Sequence record: OP312987.1
Source of the DNA: Escherichia phage vB_EcoS_Uz-1
DNA length: 64,000 nucleotides
Direction: 5' to 3' (one strand)
Below are positions 1 through 7,515 of the stretch, piece after piece (position 1 is the first letter of the stretch; each line of letters opens with the position of its first letter). The notes below the pieces were generated by a model. The model was not told where the DNA came from. It did not search any database and saw only the letters and a program-made list of their open reading frames with translations. The translations under genes were made by a program, and so were the position numbers.

Positions 1-268
1 CGTTTTCTGAATCTTTGCAGAATTCCTCAATACTTTTCTTACGCAGAGTCTCGTTCATAGCTGTTTCTTCAGCTAATTTGTTTACGAATGTATGCATTTC
101 TAACTTAGTACGGATGGCTTGTTTCTCTGCCATAGTAGATACATATGAGTTAAGCATACCTACTGCTTTAGTAGCTGTGCCAAATGTATCTGCAACAGTA
201 GTAGCAGCTGAGTTAACAGTACCAAGTAAAGTTCCTGCGGTCATACGTACAGTAGCTTGAGTAGTCAT
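1..268 (-). CDS. hypothetical protein, 3' end truncated by window edge
   Basis: Minus-strand frame opens at ATG 268..266 with GGAG about 9 nt upstream and stays open to position 1; Thr/Ala-rich product (MTTQATVRMTAGTLLGTVNSAATT...). The plus ORF 15..260 is its antisense. Confidence 0.45.
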   Translation of the reverse strand, partial: MTTQATVRMTAGTLLGTVNSAATTVADTFGTATKAVGMLNSYVSTMAEKQAIRTKLEMHTFVNKLAEETAMNETLRKKSIEEFCKDSEN

Positions 269-469
269 GATGATAGCTCCAATAGTTGATGATAGGACGA
301 CATGTCCATAACATGCGGAGCATGTGTAACGTGTAAGGTGGGGTAGGGTAGTGGCTACAGGGTCAACATACCGGGGGGGCTAGTTGAGTGTAAGGGTGTA
401 GCCCCTGCCACACCACTACAGCCATACATAGCTATCACAATTTTGGTATGCAAAAATAATATAGCTATC

Positions 470-796
470 TCACTTATAAGCAGTTAAATAGGAGGAAATA
501 ACCAGTGAGGGGTTGTAGTCATGGTAATACCAATATGCGTCACTATGGGTAGTGTTTATAGGCATACCAATGTAATCAAATACCCATAAGCAGAAGTGGT
601 TTACTTCATGGATAAGTGTTGGTAAGGGTTCCTGAAAGATACCCATAAGAACCTTATTACCGGAGTAAGAAGTAAACCCTTTACAACCTTCTATGTCTGG
701 TTCATACCCTTTAAGTTTCTTGTACTTCTTAACGAAGGTATCCTGATCAAATACTACCTCTAACTGCACTGGGTAGGGAGATGTGTTTAGTTTCAT
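470..796 (-). CDS. small hypothetical protein, possible sixth member of the paralog array (HEVNH motif)
   Basis: ORF track 108 aa; start overlaps the upstream gene stop (ATGA); contains LIHEVNHF, loosely alignable to the HExxG core of neighbouring paralogs. Confidence 0.5.
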   Translation of the reverse strand: MKLNTSPYPVQLEVVFDQDTFVKKYKKLKGYEPDIEGCKGFTSYSGNKVLMGIFQEPLPTLIHEVNHFCLWVFDYIGMPINTTHSDAYWYYHDYNPSLVISSYLTAYK

Positions 797-1076
797 TGTC
801 TTTCCTTATAGATTGGGGTGTTATCCTCGAAGGATAGGATGTACTTGTCTGTATTGAGATGCCATGGACTGAATCTACCCTGCCAGGACATTGGTGTACC
901 TGGTTCAAGTAGATGTACTTCTGCTTTCTTATTGTGTAAGAAAAGCAATCCTTGTAGTTCATGCAAGGACTGTTCGTCTGGAACCAGGATAAGTATATCA
1001 GCATCTAGGTTAGCTACTTTTTATGGTGGGTGTATTCATCCCAAGGTATTTCTGAATAAATTTTACTGATAACCAT
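793..1076 (-). CDS. paralog-family small protein, frame-shifted in this assembly
   Basis: Hand translation: ATG 1076..1074 gives MVISKIYSEIPWDEYTHHKK then a stop; the adjacent frame continues ...LDADILILVPDEQSLHELQGLLFLHN...YKERQ with the family core motif. The frames join if the T5 run near 1018-1023 gains one base. Not in the ORF track. Confidence 0.4.
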
Positions 1077-1306
1077 TAGATGCTCTCGTCGCTAGATAAA
1101 TATGAGGTAGATGGGTAGAGGGTAATGAGTCTACCGGTTAGAGTAGTTACTACCATAGGTTCTGTAGTGGAGTAGATGTACACAACTATGTGCTCCGGTA
1201 TTTCTACGGAATCTTCTATCTTAATGAATTTGATAGGTTGCCCCAGCATTAAGCAAGTACCAATGAACACTTCTGCTTCTTCGCATTGTTCGTAGTACAT
1301 GGTCAT
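1076..1306 (-). CDS. paralog-family small protein
   Basis: ORF track 76 aa; core EQCEEAEVFIGTCLMLG matches the family motif; N-terminus may lie upstream in another frame. Confidence 0.5.
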   Translation of the reverse strand: MTMYYEQCEEAEVFIGTCLMLGQPIKFIKIEDSVEIPEHIVVYIYSTTEPMVVTTLTGRLITLYPSTSYLSSDESI

Positions 1307-1395
1307 AGGCGTGCTTATTCTAATCCAGTGAGATTTACCTACCCCAGATTAAGGGGACTGGTACTACGATAACTCAAACCATAGAAGCGCATAAC

Positions 1396-1710
1396 TTACT
1401 TCCTTACATAGTAGTAACGGTACTCCTCATCATCATGCCTACAATCCCATTGGTAGTCATCGGATACCATCATGAAAGGTAGAGCGTCTACGCACTTAAA
1501 GTTGGTATATACTGATGGAGGAATGATACATACAACTTTACGGTCATTGCCTGCTAAGAAGAGCTGACCCCTTACTTCATGATAATCCTCTAAGGTAGGA
1601 ACCAAGATTACATGCTGGGGGTTGCTATCTATGACTTCCTCTAAAGTAAAGTCTGTTGTGTACAAGGCTCCCCTTCTAACAAAACTAGGGACGGTCAGTA
1701 TGAATTTCAT
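1396..1710 (-). CDS. paralog-family small protein
   Basis: ORF track 1396..1785; likely start at the internal Met (MKFILTV...); core VILVPTLEDYHEVRGQLFLAGN. Confidence 0.5.
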   Translation of the reverse strand: MKFILTVPSFVRRGALYTTDFTLEEVIDSNPQHVILVPTLEDYHEVRGQLFLAGNDRKVVCIIPPSVYTNFKCVDALPFMMVSDDYQWDCRHDDEEYRYYYVRK

Positions 1711-2074
1711 GGTTGATTTTCCTTCCTTTAGGGATAGGTCTGAAGTAAATGGAAAGTGTTTTATTAAAGAGGTTATGTTCAACAATCATTTCCCAGTCAG
1801 GTACTTTATAGAACCTGACTCCTGGGAAGAACTGTTTGAAGTCTGCATAATCAGTAAGGTCATACACAACTGGTTCAGTAAGTATCACAGTATTGATTTG
1901 CAGGTTTGATAAGAAAAGAGAGCCAACTATCTCGTGGGATTCTTCACAGTCTGGTAGGAAGACTACTTGTTTAGGAGCTAGGAACTTACTTACCATCTCT
2001 GGTTCCCCAGGTAGATAGGGTTCCTGCTTACGAAGTACTCCGGTAATATCAATATCAAAAGCGTAGATGCTCAT
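1685..2074 (-). CDS. paralog-family small protein
   Basis: ORF track 129 aa; core VVFLPDCEESHEIVGSLFLSN clearly related to the 1396, 1076, 793 and 2274 genes. Confidence 0.55.
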   Translation of the reverse strand: MSIYAFDIDITGVLRKQEPYLPGEPEMVSKFLAPKQVVFLPDCEESHEIVGSLFLSNLQINTVILTEPVVYDLTDYADFKQFFPGVRFYKVPDWEMIVEHNLFNKTLSIYFRPIPKGRKINHEIHTDRP

Positions 2075-2273
2075 AATTGCATACCTCCAGAAAAAGAAAT
2101 GGGGTAGAGCCTCTCGACTCTACCCTTACCGTTTTCTATCACGGGTCAGTTCATCACCCTAGATACTTGTGTATCGTTAGCCTACCAGGTAGGAAAGGAG
2201 CCGGGTAACCCTGACTGTAGAAGTTATTAACTCTTTACGAGTACCGCCACTGTCTACTAGGCGGTATGACTAA

Positions 2274-2564
2274 TCACATCGTCACCATCATCCGAACACT
2301 GTCTTTACTTCGTTTGATGGAAACACTATGAGGTAATTTTGTGAAGAACACAAGAGCTGAAAGTCTCTTTTCTAAAGAGTAAGTTTCTCTTGGTTCTAAG
2401 ATCTTAATGCCCGGACGATTCTCTAATAGCATCATCCCAGCTAATTCATGGTAGGAATCTTCATCATGTGTAATGATAATATCATCTGAAAGAATACCAG
2501 CCTTGGTGTGGTCTAGCTCTTTGTATTCATCTTTAGAGTCTAGGACTCTCATATAGATTCTCAA
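2274..2564 (-). CDS. paralog-family small protein
   Basis: ORF track 96 aa; core IIITHDEDSYHELAGMMLLEN. Confidence 0.5.
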   Translation of the reverse strand: MRIYMRVLDSKDEYKELDHTKAGILSDDIIITHDEDSYHELAGMMLLENRPGIKILEPRETYSLEKRLSALVFFTKLPHSVSIKRSKDSVRMMVTM

Positions 2565-2733
2565 AGGTTACTCCTTTTGGGAATAGGGTCATCGGAACAT
2601 TACATACTATTTAGTATCATGAACTTTTTCTATATCATGACTAAAGTGTAACTGTATGGTATGGTTTCTTCAAGGGTAACTCACCCCAAGAAAGAATCTT
2701 CTTTAATAGACATAACTTTGTAGAGAGATAAGT

Positions 2734-3423
2734 ATGAGTGAGCTAACTAAGCAGCAGATTGTTAATGCCCTTCCTGCTAACTTCAAGAACAGTGTAACCC
2801 AGGAGTTGGTGGACACAATTAACAACATTACCCAAGACCAACTGGTTGCTGAAGCATTCCGTGAAAACTTCATCTCTTACTCTGGTGTTATGAAGGAAGG
2901 TAAGTTTAAGACACAGGACTACATGAATGCAGTTCAGTATGTGACTTATAAACACATGGGCTACTCAAATAAGGAAGCCTACTTCAAAACATTCCCTAAC
3001 CGACAAGCAGAACTTGTGGCACGAGGAACCAGTGAAAAAGATATTAGTGCTTATGTATCTGCTTATCACAGAGGTAAGTTAGTTAACCTCATCATGGAAC
3101 AAAGTTTGGTTCCAGTGTGGATTGTTAACCAGGACAATTATCAAAAGGCTATCAACGTTCAGGTTGAACTAATGACCACAGCAGCAAGTGAGAAGGTAAG
3201 ATGTGATGCAGCTAACTCTATCCTTACTCACTTGGCTAAACCAAAAGACCAGGTAACGAATATCAATCTGGACTTGAGAGAGAACTCTGGGTTGACTGAC
3301 CTCAAGGCAACACTTGCTGCATTAGCTGAACAGCAAATTAATGCAATCAATAGTGGAGTACCTACTAAAGAGATTGCTGGTTCTAAACTAGTACGTGCAG
3401 ATGAGGACATTACAGATGTCTGA
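2734..3423 (+). CDS. hypothetical protein, candidate small terminase subunit (by position only)
   Basis: 229-aa ORF immediately upstream of and overlapping the large terminase gene; no motif verified. Confidence 0.5.
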   Translation: MSELTKQQIVNALPANFKNSVTQELVDTINNITQDQLVAEAFRENFISYSGVMKEGKFKTQDYMNAVQYVTYKHMGYSNKEAYFKTFPNRQAELVARGTSEKDISAYVSAYHRGKLVNLIMEQSLVPVWIVNQDNYQKAINVQVELMTTAASEKVRCDAANSILTHLAKPKDQVTNINLDLRENSGLTDLKATLAALAEQQINAINSGVPTKEIAGSKLVRADEDITDV

Positions 3424-5005
3424 GTTAATTAAGCAGGAACTAGATGAATGGTTGGACCAGGTGGATTACTCCTACCTTAATTCATCCAACTATGTTCCTA
3501 GTCAGTTTGCCCTTACCTTTGCCAACTTTATTAAGTTGGTTAATGGCAAGGAAGGTGAATCCAACAAAACACCCCCAGTTCACTTAAAGATGCTGGATAA
3601 GATGATTAGTCCGAACCAGTATGTAGTTAACCTGTGCTTCCGTGGTGCAGGTAAGACTGCTGTGTTCATGGAATACTTTACTTTGTTCCTGGCAGTGTTT
3701 GGTCACTTACCCAGTCTTGGTAAAGTAGAAGGAATGATTTACGTATCCGATTCAATGGATAACGGTGCTAAGTCTGCACGTAAGAATATTGAGTTCCGAT
3801 ATAAGAACAGTGAGTTCCTTCAGCAGTGGATACCTGAAGCTACCTTTACGGATAACCTGTTAGAGTTCCGTAATGCAGAGGGACATAGACTGGGGGTTAA
3901 GTTGTTTGGTGCTAAGACAGGTCTTCGTGGTACGAAGATATATGGTAAACGTCCAACACTCTGTGTACTGGATGACTTGATTAGTGACAGTGATGCAAAC
4001 TCCAAGACAAGCATGGAGGCTATTAAAGATACTGTTTATAAAGGTGTGAACCATGCTCTTGACCCAACCCGTCGTAAAGTAATTTTCAATGGTACTCCCT
4101 TTAATAAGGAAGACATTATCATTGAAGCAGTTGAGTCTGGTGCATGGGATGTCAACGTATGGCCTGTATGTGAGAAGTTCCCTTGTAGCAGAGAAGAGTT
4201 TCAAGGTGCATGGGATGACCGTTTCTCATACGACTACATCAAAGCCCAATATGACATGGCAGTTAAGACAGGTAAGCTGGCTGGCTTCTATCAGGAACTT
4301 ATGCTTCGTATTAGTTCTGAAGATGAGAGACTGGTTCAGGATAGTGAAATTAAATGGTACAGCAGGCAGCAACTATTAAGGATGAAGTCCTGCTACAACT
4401 ATTATATTACAACTGACTTTGCTACTTCGGAGAAACAGACCAGTGACTACAGTGTCATATCAGTTTGGGCTTACAGTTCTAATGGAGATTGGTTCTGGGT
4501 TGATGGTGTGGCTAATCGTCAGCTTATGGATAAAAACTTTGATGACTTATTCCGTCTGGTTCAAGAATACCAACCACAAAACGTTGGGGTCGAGATCACG
4601 GGACAGCAGAATGGGTTTATCTCCCTTCTCCAGAAAGAAATGATTAACCGTAACGTCTTCTTTAACTTTGCATCTTCTGAGGGTGGTAAGCCAGGCATAC
4701 GTCCTGTAACCTCTAAGCTGTCACGATTTAACCTGGTAGTTCCATGGTTCAAAGCTGGTAAGATGTACTTTCCAGAAGAGTTGAGAGATACAACTATTAT
4801 GGGTCTGTTCATGGGCCAGCTTAAACTAGCTACCATTAATGGAATTAAAGGTAAGGATGACTGTATTGATACTATCTCCATGCTGGGTTATCTCAATCCT
4901 TGGAAACCACAAGCAGGCATGACTATGGTGGATAACAAGGGTGATCCGATGTGGGATGACGAAGAAGAAGATAGTGTTAACCCTCTACGTTCATACATTG
5001 TGTGA
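3416..5005 (+). CDS. terL: terminase large subunit
   Basis: About 530 aa with P-loop-like FRGAGKT near the N-terminus, upstream of tail and portal genes in N4-like order. Start chosen at ATG 3416 (GAGG 9 nt upstream, overlaps upstream stop); the ORF track begins at GTG 3395. Confidence 0.8.
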   Translation: MSELIKQELDEWLDQVDYSYLNSSNYVPSQFALTFANFIKLVNGKEGESNKTPPVHLKMLDKMISPNQYVVNLCFRGAGKTAVFMEYFTLFLAVFGHLPSLGKVEGMIYVSDSMDNGAKSARKNIEFRYKNSEFLQQWIPEATFTDNLLEFRNAEGHRLGVKLFGAKTGLRGTKIYGKRPTLCVLDDLISDSDANSKTSMEAIKDTVYKGVNHALDPTRRKVIFNGTPFNKEDIIIEAVESGAWDVNVWPVCEKFPCSREEFQGAWDDRFSYDYIKAQYDMAVKTGKLAGFYQELMLRISSEDERLVQDSEIKWYSRQQLLRMKSCYNYYITTDFATSEKQTSDYSVISVWAYSSNGDWFWVDGVANRQLMDKNFDDLFRLVQEYQPQNVGVEITGQQNGFISLLQKEMINRNVFFNFASSEGGKPGIRPVTSKLSRFNLVVPWFKAGKMYFPEELRDTTIMGLFMGQLKLATINGIKGKDDCIDTISMLGYLNPWKPQAGMTMVDNKGDPMWDDEEEDSVNPLRSYIV

Positions 5006-5011
5006 GGAACC

Positions 5012-5722
5012 ATGCAAAAATTATCAGAAGTATACCGTGGCTTGGCACTAAGTACCTTGAAGGGTACTGGTGCAATCACGGATGATAGATTAGGTATTGA
5101 ACCAGATAGTAAGCCTGAAATACTGGCAGCTATTAATGAAGGACTGGTTCGACTGCATAGTCGTTTCCCCCTTAGGACTAATAGCTGTATTGTGGAGATG
5201 AAGGAAGGACGTACTGATTATCCTCTTCAATCCAAGTATGCTTACTCCAGGTTTACTAAACCTACTCTTGAGATTCAGTATCCGTATATCATGGATGGGT
5301 TCATGAAGCCTTTCCAGGATGATGTTATTAAAATCTTAAATGTGTTTGATAACTCAGGTAACCGACGTAGATTGAACGATGATTCAGACCCCCGTGCTAT
5401 CTTCACCCCACGGCCTGATACTATTCAGTGTATGCGACCTCGACACTTCGAAGCACTTAACGTAACTTATCAGGCAAAGCACCCAGTACTTACGGGTGAT
5501 GAAGAACAGGAAGTTGATTTAGCTGATACGCTAATGACGGCACTTCATAACTGGGTGGGTTATCGTTACCACACTGGTTTGAATACCCCAGAAGCTAATG
5601 CTAAAGCAGCAGAGTATCTGCAAACGTATGAAAGCATCTGTGGTGAGGTTGTTGATTACGACCTGGCTAATGGAAGTATTTCAATTACCGAAACTAAATT
5701 TGAACAACGAGGATGGCGATGA
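5012..5722 (+). CDS. hypothetical virion protein
   Basis: 236-aa ORF with GAGGA upstream of ATG 5012, inside the late structural block. Confidence 0.6.
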   Translation: MQKLSEVYRGLALSTLKGTGAITDDRLGIEPDSKPEILAAINEGLVRLHSRFPLRTNSCIVEMKEGRTDYPLQSKYAYSRFTKPTLEIQYPYIMDGFMKPFQDDVIKILNVFDNSGNRRRLNDDSDPRAIFTPRPDTIQCMRPRHFEALNVTYQAKHPVLTGDEEQEVDLADTLMTALHNWVGYRYHTGLNTPEANAKAAEYLQTYESICGEVVDYDLANGSISITETKFEQRGWR

Positions 5723-7515
5723 ACTCACATACCCCCTTTGATGCAAATCAGGATTGGACCAATCCTTACTGTCATAACAGTTCCAATGACCCTATGGTAG
5801 ATGCACTGCTTGGTAATGCTTACCATGTGGTACGTACTGTCTACTGTAATTTAGGTAACCTCAAACTCATTTATGATTTCTTGAATAAATATGGAATGGT
5901 GCTTGGTGTACAGTCTGAAGCAGAACTTAAAGCATTAACTACTAAAGCTAAGTATGCACGTATCTACGGCTTCTCTCGTACAGGTGACCGTCAGGTAACT
6001 GACTACTTATACGTAGAGGGTGACCGTACAGGTATTTTACCCGATGACACTACTGCAACCGGTTCATGGATTACTGTTGCTACTTCTGGCTCTACTGGTG
6101 GTGGTGGTACTTCTTCCAGTGAAGGTGCTTATATTCCTTGGGTATACAGCAATGGTTCCGCTACTGGTGGTGAAACCACAATTAACGTACCTGACGGTAC
6201 TGTGGGTGTACCTTTTATCATTATTAATGGTGACATGCAGTATGTAGGGCGAGGCTTTGAGTTTAACGCAGATAACCTGTCCGTAACTCTGGCTCAGCCT
6301 CTGGAAGAGGGTGATGAAGTAGTATTCCTTCTGACTGGGGTTCCTGCTGTACCAGATAATCCTAACGTTAACGACTGGGTTCAGATTAATTGGTTATACA
6401 ACAATGGTGCTGCTGTAGGAGGTGAGCAGGTTATTGCTATCCCTTATACCTTCCAGTCTATTCCTGCCGTGTATAAGAATGGACTTCGTTTGTATAAAGG
6501 ATTAACTACTGAGTCCTATACTGCTGACCCGGATAGCCAACGTATACTTCTTACTGAACCACTGACAACCAATGACCGGTTGATTGTGCAAATTGGTGGG
6601 GAAGCACAGGTACTGGAAGCATCAGACCATACTCTTCAGGAAGTTGCTCGTGCTGCTAATGTTAAAGATAGTGAAGTAATCCTTAGTACTGATACTTCTC
6701 AGATACTTAATGGTAAAAAGGTAATTTTTGATGTAGCTACCCAACACTGCTATGCCTTACCTACTTTGCCCAGTAATGTTTATATTACGTCTGTTAATGA
6801 AGGTCAGTTAACATTTTCCCCGGGTAATATAACAGTTGATTTGTTACCACTGGTTGACTCAAAGGAAAACATTGTTGCTGTGGTTAAGGATATCTATTCA
6901 CAGTCAACTGGTTCGGTATCCGTTGGGCATGGTTCAAGAACTGTTGCTGACAATCTAGATGATATCAAGCATTCAGCTAACTACCCTGATTTACAAGCTG
7001 CAATTGACGCTACAAATCCACGTGATGATCTGCTCATTACAGCAGGTACATACCCAGGTGGGTATACTTCAGGTAATGCAAACCTAATCGGTGTAGGTTA
7101 TGGTGTCAATTTTACCCCGGGTATTGGTAAAACTTCTCTTACACTTTCCGAGTCTTCTCGTTTATGGCAATACCGCCATGCGGAAAACTTTCTAATAACT
7201 GGGTCAGTAGATGTACCACAGGGCATCGGCATTACTTTTGGTGGTTCGCCTACACCGAACCTGGATGGGCGTTGGAATTTTAAACACATTGCATTTGACG
7301 GGCTTGACATTGGTGTATTTAAACCTAAAGGGAATATTGGTAATACATACCAACACTGCAGCTATTTAGGGTGTAATTACGGGCATAAAACTGAGTCAGA
7401 TCCAAATATGCACGTGGGGCTGATACATGGAGGGATTGCCATTTTGCAGGCATCAATACTTATGGTATTTACCTTAACGGTTCTGTTGGTGGCCCTGCTC
7501 CAGGTGGTGGTCTAG
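5713..7515 (+). CDS. tail fiber / tailspike-like protein (N-terminal part)
   Basis: 600-aa ORF, Gly/Thr/Ser-rich with an internal tandem repeat of an NG..GGE module; the last ~25 residues are hydrophobic and look out of frame. Confidence 0.65.
   Translation: MAMNSHTPFDANQDWTNPYCHNSSNDPMVDALLGNAYHVVRTVYCNLGNLKLIYDFLNKYGMVLGVQSEAELKALTTKAKYARIYGFSRTGDRQVTDYLYVEGDRTGILPDDTTATGSWITVATSGSTGGGGTSSSEGAYIPWVYSNGSATGGETTINVPDGTVGVPFIIINGDMQYVGRGFEFNADNLSVTLAQPLEEGDEVVFLLTGVPAVPDNPNVNDWVQINWLYNNGAAVGGEQVIAIPYTFQSIPAVYKNGLRLYKGLTTESYTADPDSQRILLTEPLTTNDRLIVQIGGEAQVLEASDHTLQEVARAANVKDSEVILSTDTSQILNGKKVIFDVATQHCYALPTLPSNVYITSVNEGQLTFSPGNITVDLLPLVDSKENIVAVVKDIYSQSTGSVSVGHGSRTVADNLDDIKHSANYPDLQAAIDATNPRDDLLITAGTYPGGYTSGNANLIGVGYGVNFTPGIGKTSLTLSESSRLWQYRHAENFLITGSVDVPQGIGITFGGSPTPNLDGRWNFKHIAFDGLDIGVFKPKGNIGNTYQHCSYLGCNYGHKTESDPNMHVGLIHGGIAILQASILMVFTLTVLLVALLQVVV

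Follow-up and report, generated by a model that had tools for sequence, protein, structure and literature searches.

A stretch of 64,000 nucleotides (nt) from Escherichia phage vB_EcoS_Uz-1 (sequence record OP312987.1), referred to here as the window, carries six small minus-strand genes between positions 470 and 2,564. The original prediction described them as a tandem array of five to six diverged paralogs, and all six open reading frames (ORFs) that it had placed there are present. Judging from their sequences, four of these genes, named A, B, C, and E in the order of transcription, are homologous, D is a probable divergent member, and F does not belong to the family. The family itself can be identified, at a probability of about 0.9, as the uncharacterised gp70/gp71 family of phage N4, which is expanded in Gamaleyaviruses.

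The array begins with gene A (2274-2564, 96 amino acids (aa), TTG start), the orthologue of N4 gp70 and G7C gp70 (phrog_7213). It is followed by gene B (1685-2074, 129 aa), which is of the N4 gp71 and G7C gp71 type (phrog_9160), and by gene C (1396-1710, 104 aa), which is of the G7C gp71.1 type (phrog_11661) and overlaps the end of B by 26 nt. Gene D (1076-1392, G7C gp71.2 type, phrog_12099) is frame-broken and consists of a 17-codon 5′ ORF (1339-1392) and a 76-aa 3′ ORF (1076-1306). Gene E (793-1076, phrog_16338) is also frame-broken, with a 5′ ORF at 1014-1076 and a 3′ part at 793-1017, and gene F (470-796, 108 aa, phrog_1365) closes the array. Three non-coding features are read on the same strand: a conserved spacer between A and B (2075-2273), a sigma-70-like promoter candidate directed toward A (2645-2673), and a distal boundary block (413-496) of conserved DNA reaching up to the terminal repeat. 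The family members are stand-alone cytoplasmic proteins of about 95-130 aa; the array proteins are mildly acidic (isoelectric point (pI) 5.0-6.4), with a mean hydropathy that is negative or near zero.

The homology of A, B, C, and E is carried by pairwise alignments, by cross-matches between protein families, and by a profile search of the whole window. In Smith-Waterman alignments scored against 2000 shuffles, the pairs A-E (z = 12.2), B-C (z = 9.5), C-E (z = 6.8), B-E (z = 6.1), and A-C (z = 5.0) lay well beyond the shuffled sequences, while the A-B pair alone reached only z = 2.4. Every window protein finds a PHROG of its own (E = 1e-41 to 1e-62), and, across 38,880 PHROG families, A also matches the family of E, B that of C, C that of E, and E that of A (E = 2e-4 to 1e-3). 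A profile built from A-, B-, C-, E-, and PHROG-12606-type sequences, from which D was left out, matched A, B, C, and E only among the 723 six-frame segments of the window. A chance resemblance in the motif shared by these four genes was thus not borne out.

With regard to D, no significant pairwise similarity to the other window genes was detected in the same alignments (z ≤ 1.7), and the window copy scores only 7.9 bits (E = 0.12) against the D-free profile. Full-length D orthologues reach 7-15 bits with this profile (723 targets, E = 8e-4 to 0.2) and align in register at the motif when the profile is enlarged by distant members. In addition, hhalign gives P = 5.5e-4 at a probability of 30% for D against the family, and D carries the glycine and the hydrophobic pattern of the core motif without its proline and histidine. 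These sequence comparisons make D a probable member of the family. Gene F, which had been suggested as a possible sixth paralog, was rejected as such, since it gave an hhalign E-value of 0.38, a profile score of -0.3 bits, and pairwise z-scores below zero. Of the six genes first considered as tandem paralogs, four therefore stand, one is probable, and one drops out.

The genes of N4 and G7C are direct homologues that share position, orientation, and size with those of the window. N4 gp70 (102 aa) and N4 gp71 (121 aa) score 32.1 and 19.9 bits, respectively, against the family profile, and the G7C annotation names the same genes gp70, gp71, gp71.1, and gp71.2. N4 has two members, while the Uz-1 array has four to five plus the unrelated F; in N4 and G7C, too, the first gene is separated from the second by a conserved spacer of about 200 nt that contains a terminator. 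Members are stand-alone genes for proteins of about 90-135 aa; they lie in the interval bounded by the gp69/terminase operon and the right terminal repeat, with transcription directed toward the latter. Other phages have the same layout: in KP8, JWAlpha, and inbricus, a spacer of about 250 nt separates an A-type gene from the further members behind it (at least five plus an F homologue in KP8, five in JWAlpha, and two to three in inbricus).

PHROGs 7213, 9160, 11661, 16338, 12606, and 12099, all labelled "unknown function", are separate in that resource and are joined here by cross-matches, profiles, and predicted structures, although PHROG 12099, which corresponds to D, is joined only weakly. 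On this combined evidence from sequences and models, at least five PHROG families of unknown function are united in one lineage-specific superfamily. PHROG 12606 is the label of two array genes in the Mimir124 annotation, both of which align with the family.

A tblastn search with A returned 97 phage records, from Escherichia, Shigella, Klebsiella, Achromobacter, and Pseudomonas phages, and those opened belonged to Schitoviridae; where a linear record starts at the left end, the match is found close to the right end of a genome of about 70 kb. When 1.84 billion representative proteins were searched exhaustively with HMMER, only 21 clusters (50% identity) were obtained at E ≤ 1e-3, all of 54-132 aa and none fused to another domain. 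The family has been found so far only in Schitoviridae, at the same genome position and in 1 to 7 copies per genome. Two A-type proteins (P0115 and P0205), 84% identical to window A, are annotated as Enterococcus faecium hypotheticals on a contig of 2.76 Mb, and finding a coliphage gene in the assembly of a Gram-positive bacterium points to contamination or misassembly of that record.

The array proteins of the window matched nothing in Pfam (E ≤ 1), NCBIfam, or PADLOC, and a sequence-profile search of the PDB with the family gave nothing below E = 0.5. A match to a well-known core phage protein family, which would have spoken against the first description of the array, was accordingly not found in Pfam, NCBIfam, or PDB sequences. 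No published function came up in the searchable literature, nor did an earlier description of these genes as mutual paralogs; no functional data were found in work on N4 gp70/gp71, right-end genes, transcriptomes, the replication origin, or essentiality screens.

The motif shared by the family is longer than first described and is comprised of a hydrophobic strand ending in proline, a helix with an invariant glycine, the element h-L-x-N/G, and a second strand that again ends in proline (KILEP, VILTEP, VCIIPP, or HLLEP). The helix glycine is invariant in two alignments, of 22 and of 18 diverse sequences, and is the sole invariant residue across subfamilies. AlphaFold2 models of C (12-sequence alignment; predicted local distance difference test score (pLDDT) of 82 in the best model) and of A (69-sequence superfamily alignment; pLDDT of 84.5, with all five models at 77-84) show the motif region as a beta-strand, the proline, a 13-residue helix centred on the invariant glycine, a turn, and a second strand. 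A beta-sheet at the C-terminus completes what is predicted to be a small alpha/beta domain. A Foldseek search of BFVD returned uncharacterised Schitoviridae proteins only, several per phage, with template modelling scores (TM-scores) of 0.84-0.88 for the closest three and 0.4-0.65 for other family matches.

The evolution of the array was followed in a census of 21 loci and the window; a locus search with one protein as query reached Gamaleyaviruses only. A-B-C-D is constant in all Gamaleyavirus loci but one, and A is the only member present in every Schitoviridae locus examined. Distal to D, the cassettes vary and include E, F, two PHROG-12606 types, and an extra E-like copy. Members number two in N4, three plus D in G7C, and as many as seven in IME11. 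In a natural relative of 70 kb (L023; IMGVR_UViG_3300024308_000028), the array at 5944-7073 consists only of A, the spacer, and F, and B-E are therefore dispensable as a block. In Shigella phage Moonfish, the distal position is taken by an unrelated minus-strand ORF of 125 aa (L005, 1866-2243; YAIKFP ... KIDYG), which is reminiscent of small protein-kinase-like proteins.

The closest DNA relative over positions 1-3400 is Bp4 (KJ135004.2), which matches at 90.7% identity in one gap-free piece with the same coordinates. In comparison with Bp4, the ratio of nonsynonymous to synonymous substitution rates (dN/dS) is 0.18 for A, 0.27 for B, 0.18 for C, 0.18 for the 3′ part of D, and 0.21 for F, about ten times the values of the neighbouring gp69 homologue (0.02) and terminase (0.03). 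Likewise, B, C, and F are 80-84% identical to their Bp4 counterparts, against 93-96% for the neighbouring genes. The variable copy number (from 1-2 to 7 among relatives), the fast divergence, and the mosaic distal half agree with the accessory behaviour that had been expected of the array and that was to be looked for in N4-like relatives.

Gene F is one of the cassettes of the variable distal part in Gamaleyaviruses and also occurs in the KP8 array (L008, 5616-5948). Its motif HE[LV]NHF contains an HExxH signature that is invariant as HE[LV]NH in five orthologues and reads HELNH in the KP8 homologue. About 20 residues after it, a conserved S[ED]AY might provide a third zinc ligand, a pattern as in minimal zinc metallopeptidases. 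No Pfam, NCBIfam, or PDB sequence match was obtained for F (nothing below E = 0.5 in the PDB).

The non-coding DNA of the array is in part better conserved than its genes. This holds for the A-B spacer of about 200 nt across N4, KP8, G7C-like phages, JWAlpha, and inbricus, with counterparts at 4865-5074 in locus L007, 3798-4053 in L008, 3870-4059 in L009, and 3885-4071 in L010. Right after the A stop codon, the spacer contains a GC hairpin (ACCGCC-N11-GGCGGT) with compensatory changes across five lineages, and it also contains a box that reads TTAATAAC..CTACAG in the window and TTAATAAC..CAG in its conserved form. A terminator-like hairpin with a T-run follows at 2102-2125 on the minus strand and ends 27 nt before the B start codon; a terminator is called at the same place in the JWAlpha annotation. 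Searches of positions 1-3500 for Rfam families, tRNA, and transfer-messenger RNA found nothing real, a mir-279 match at E = 0.81 being a chance one. The hairpin behind A was considered as a promoter of the N4 virion RNA polymerase and rejected, since its loop has 10-11 nt as compared with the 3-nt loop in PMC4496689. The spacer could be a structured 3′ untranslated region, a small RNA, or an attenuator of read-through into B-F.

Upstream of A, the divergent intergenic region shared with the gp69 homologue (2565-2733) is strongly conserved in N4, KP8, and G7C-like phages. Within it, at 2645-2690 on the minus strand, a GGGG-N7-CCCC hairpin flanked by a T-run precedes the sigma-70-like element, which reads TTGAAG-17-TACACT in the window, TTGCAG-17-TAGACT in N4, and TTGAAG-17-TAGACT in KP8. 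This candidate was read by eye from the alignment and scores 8/12, below the threshold of the promoter scan. Gene A would probably be transcribed from this conserved host-type promoter with the terminator behind it, and B-F would then be reached by read-through or from an unrecognised promoter of a phage polymerase; A at least looks dependent on the host polymerase.

The position of the array relative to the genome ends can be read from its relatives. Positions 1-3400 match Gamaleyavirus genomes (G7C-like, Schitoviridae), as expected from the earlier view of the window as N4-like. Proteins B and C are 100% and 99% identical, respectively, to vB_EcoS_Uz-1 proteins (P0232 in the case of B). On the plus strand, the N4 gp69 homologue (2734-3423) and the large terminase gene (3395-5005) follow, and the minus-strand genes at 470-2564 occupy the gap between this operon and the physical right end, toward which they are transcribed. 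That they reach the physical end follows from Mimir124, a phage with determined ends, whose 403-bp direct terminal repeat corresponds by homology to about positions 1-412 of the window. The true boundary of the repeat lies near 412, at a TGGCAGGGGCT motif, which resembles a conserved left-end sequence of G7C quoted in bioRxiv 10.1101/542787. The array had been placed at a genome end, and the true terminus indeed adjoins it. The start of the window (1-268) lies inside a minus-strand gene that is cut by the arbitrary origin of the Bp4-style record.

At the distal side, whichever gene comes last, its final 27 nt belong to one conserved block together with the DNA that follows. The block, at 413-496, is translated as ..SSYLTAYK* in F, D, the E-like copy, and PHROG-12606 genes, Mimir124 uses another frame, and two GATAGCTAT copies in it surround a ATTTTTGCAT..CAAAAT inverted repeat. 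The conservation probably reflects a cis-acting site or a recombination boundary and not a conserved coding sequence. The conserved spacer and this block thus offer two homologous anchors, between which cassettes would probably be swapped by recombination, a mechanism that is inferred from their conservation.

With a probability of about 0.5, the array is interpreted as a set of N4 gp70/gp71 paralogs acting as accessory, non-catalytic binding proteins for host or phage partners. They are taken to be non-catalytic because the glycine alone is invariant across subfamilies and because sequence matches are lacking in Pfam, NCBIfam, PADLOC, and the PDB. They are taken to be accessory and fast-evolving because of the dN/dS values, the lower identity to Bp4, the variable copy number, and the relative with A and F only. 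In C orthologues (n = 112), residues 33-68 are essentially invariant and variation is concentrated in three loops. The conserved residues would build the scaffold and one helix face, variable loops would tune specificity, and different paralogs would probably bind different host or phage macromolecules in middle or late infection. A conserved scaffold with a group-specific functional face fits binding proteins, while a shared catalytic centre fits less well.

The timing of such a role is limited by the position of the array. In the N4 model (PMC4496689), the left genome end enters the cell first and late genes are transcribed by the host RNA polymerase, so that an array at the right end would arrive last; an immediate-early anti-restriction role is therefore unlikely, and later roles would still be compatible. 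An acidic DNA-mimic function of the Ocr/ArdA kind was rejected on charge, as the proteins are only mildly acidic.

Several observations weigh against an accessory binding role. The literature yielded no partner, phenotype, or expression data for any member. A dN/dS of about 0.2 indicates purifying selection and hence that the genes matter, and, with A being universal, the term accessory may be wrong for A. Strict conservation of the Asp/Glu...His-Glu helix face in the A, B, C, and E groups would also fit a small ligand or metal site. In addition, the first structural model, that of C, was confident in one of five runs (pLDDT of 54-66 in the other four), and the promoter of A is proposed at the level of a consensus, with none identified for B-F.

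It is also conceivable, if rather unlikely, that the family, or at least A, takes part in the handling of phage DNA at the genome end (for example, in packaging, generation of the terminal repeat, or replication) and not in host manipulation. This would account for the presence of A in every Schitoviridae locus examined, always as the divergent neighbour of the gp69/terminase operon with a strongly conserved shared intergenic region, for the conserved block at the terminal-repeat boundary that the array adjoins, and for a weak fold resemblance to nucleic-acid motor domains. However, B-E differ in number between relatives, down to the absence of all of them, the dN/dS is about ten times that of terminase genes, and the proteins have a pI of 5.0-6.4 and no recognisable DNA-binding motif.

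The original prediction had proposed a small metal- or nucleotide-binding fold on the basis of invariant acidic residues and a His-Glu pair, in which case the members would be small enzymes or cofactor binders with their active site at the strand-helix junction. The pattern D/T-x-E-E/D-x-x-H-E at the helix N-terminus after a beta-strand indeed occupies a common ligand position in Rossmann- and RecA-like folds, the segment does not vary among the 112 C orthologues, nor does HEL among A orthologues; the pattern hhhh-D-E-x-H also faintly recalls motif II of superfamily 2 (SF2) helicases. The invariance is a property of the A, B, C, and E groups of Gamaleyaviruses and does not extend to the wider family, where a single mid-helix glycine remains. 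The His-Glu and acidic residues are replaced in bona fide members, including N4 gp70 (FHYISG), N4 gp71 (THALLG), PHROG 12606 (ADSTRG/AEFAQG), D (ADEFIG), JWAlpha (RGIQAAG), and KP8 proteins, and the acidic positions vary even among A orthologues. There is also no Walker A or P-loop and no Pfam, NCBIfam, or PDB sequence match, and, since liganding residues are not family-invariant, the proposed fold is left without support. An enzymatic function is thus improbable, and the motif is best regarded, on sequence grounds, as a fold signature and not as a demonstrated ligand site.

The structural models suggest a further, speculative possibility. They hint at a weak fold resemblance to the C-terminal RecA-like domain (domain 2) of SF2 helicases, e.g., the DEAD-box protein Prp28 (PDB 5dtu). 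An SF2 Helicase_C assignment found no Pfam match at E ≤ 1 and no PDB sequence match, and neither motif V nor the arginine-finger motif VI was seen by eye; this predicted likeness is a lead and not a classification. It is a long shot that the family represents a phage-invented, stripped-down RecA-like module, similar to helicase domain 2, that acts as a decoy or inhibitor of host SF2-helicase machines. Possible targets would be Zorya, Hachiman, type I restriction-modification, and the RNA degradosome; the array would then be an anti-defence arsenal, with the structured RNA between A and B and the terminator gating its expression.

A separate question is raised by the frame breaks in D and E. 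In D, a G4 run at 1342-1345 replaces the G5 of relatives, the interruption reads CTG GGG TAG, and 30 N-terminal residues are cut off. In E, a 1-nt deletion leaves CATAAAAAGTAG at 1014-1025 where relatives have CATAAAGAAGTAG or CATAAAGATGTAG, and the interruption reads CAT AAA AAG TAG. According to PHROG profiles and relatives, the intact proteins have 103-107 aa (D) and 94 aa (E). In each break, the contraction of a homopolymer brings a TAG directly into frame. Both are identical in Bp4 and occur in no other relative examined; in IMG/VR, the G4 allele of D is absent and the G5 allele is present in three contigs. The frame-shifted copy noted earlier was thus correctly recognised in E, but E is not alone, as D is broken too.

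The record itself bears on these breaks. Between the window and Bp4, there is no net indel over 1-4898 and 30000-54000 at 91-93.5% identity, and, with substitutions at 6.5-9%, some segments, such as 801-1000, are nevertheless 100% identical. The Uz-1 and Bp4 records are equally long (72,583 bp), while PD38, another relative, shows net indels over the same span. The exact register, which extends over at least 54 kb, and the identical length suggest that the window sequence is a reference-guided consensus built on Bp4; if so, its indels are not independent observations, and identical stretches may be inherited as well. The most likely origin of the D and E breaks is mutation or assembly error, taken over from the Bp4 reference, and not programmed frameshifting.

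Programmed -1 ribosomal frameshifting, by which full-length D and E would still be made, is very improbable, although each break is a homopolymeric codon directly before UAG (CUG GGG UAG; U AAA AAG UAG). A -1 slip in the P-site would re-pair perfectly (GGG to GGG, AAG to AAA), and the next codon would be GUA at both sites, restoring the sequence of relatives. In the dnaX heptamer, AAA AAG is the portion on which slippage occurs. Neither site is a full X XXY YYZ heptamer, however, and the architecture is not conserved, as the ORFs are continuous at both sites in all other relatives examined. The G4 allele is missing from IMG/VR, homopolymer contraction is a typical sequencing or assembly error, and the indels may have been copied from a reference with which the window is in register.

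The idea that the shared motif is a chance or compositional likeness among unrelated ORFans, to which only the lack of significant pairwise similarity of D and F to the other genes lends anything, is already refuted for A, B, C, and E by z-scores of up to 12.2, PHROG cross-matches, the window-specific profile, and agreeing predicted folds.

Small early or accessory genes that are not essential are also clustered at the genome ends of other phages, for example as the class I 0.x genes of T7 and the pre-early region of T5. The Uz-1 array resembles them in its small ORFs, high turnover, location near the terminus, and dispensability in some relatives. It differs from them in that it lies at the last-entering end, consists of true paralogs of one fold, and has no demonstrated host-takeover or anti-defence activity.

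The N4-like phages form a large family that is used in phage therapy and provides a classic transcription model, and the genes past the terminase have been without an assigned role. The 1-7 copies of the family, together with the flanking recombination anchors, constitute a concrete set of deletable targets for questions of host range and defence evasion. Since A (N4 gp70) is universal, it is the member most likely to have a core role. If these proteins do prove to inhibit host machinery, the array would offer a library of natural variants that is ready for use.

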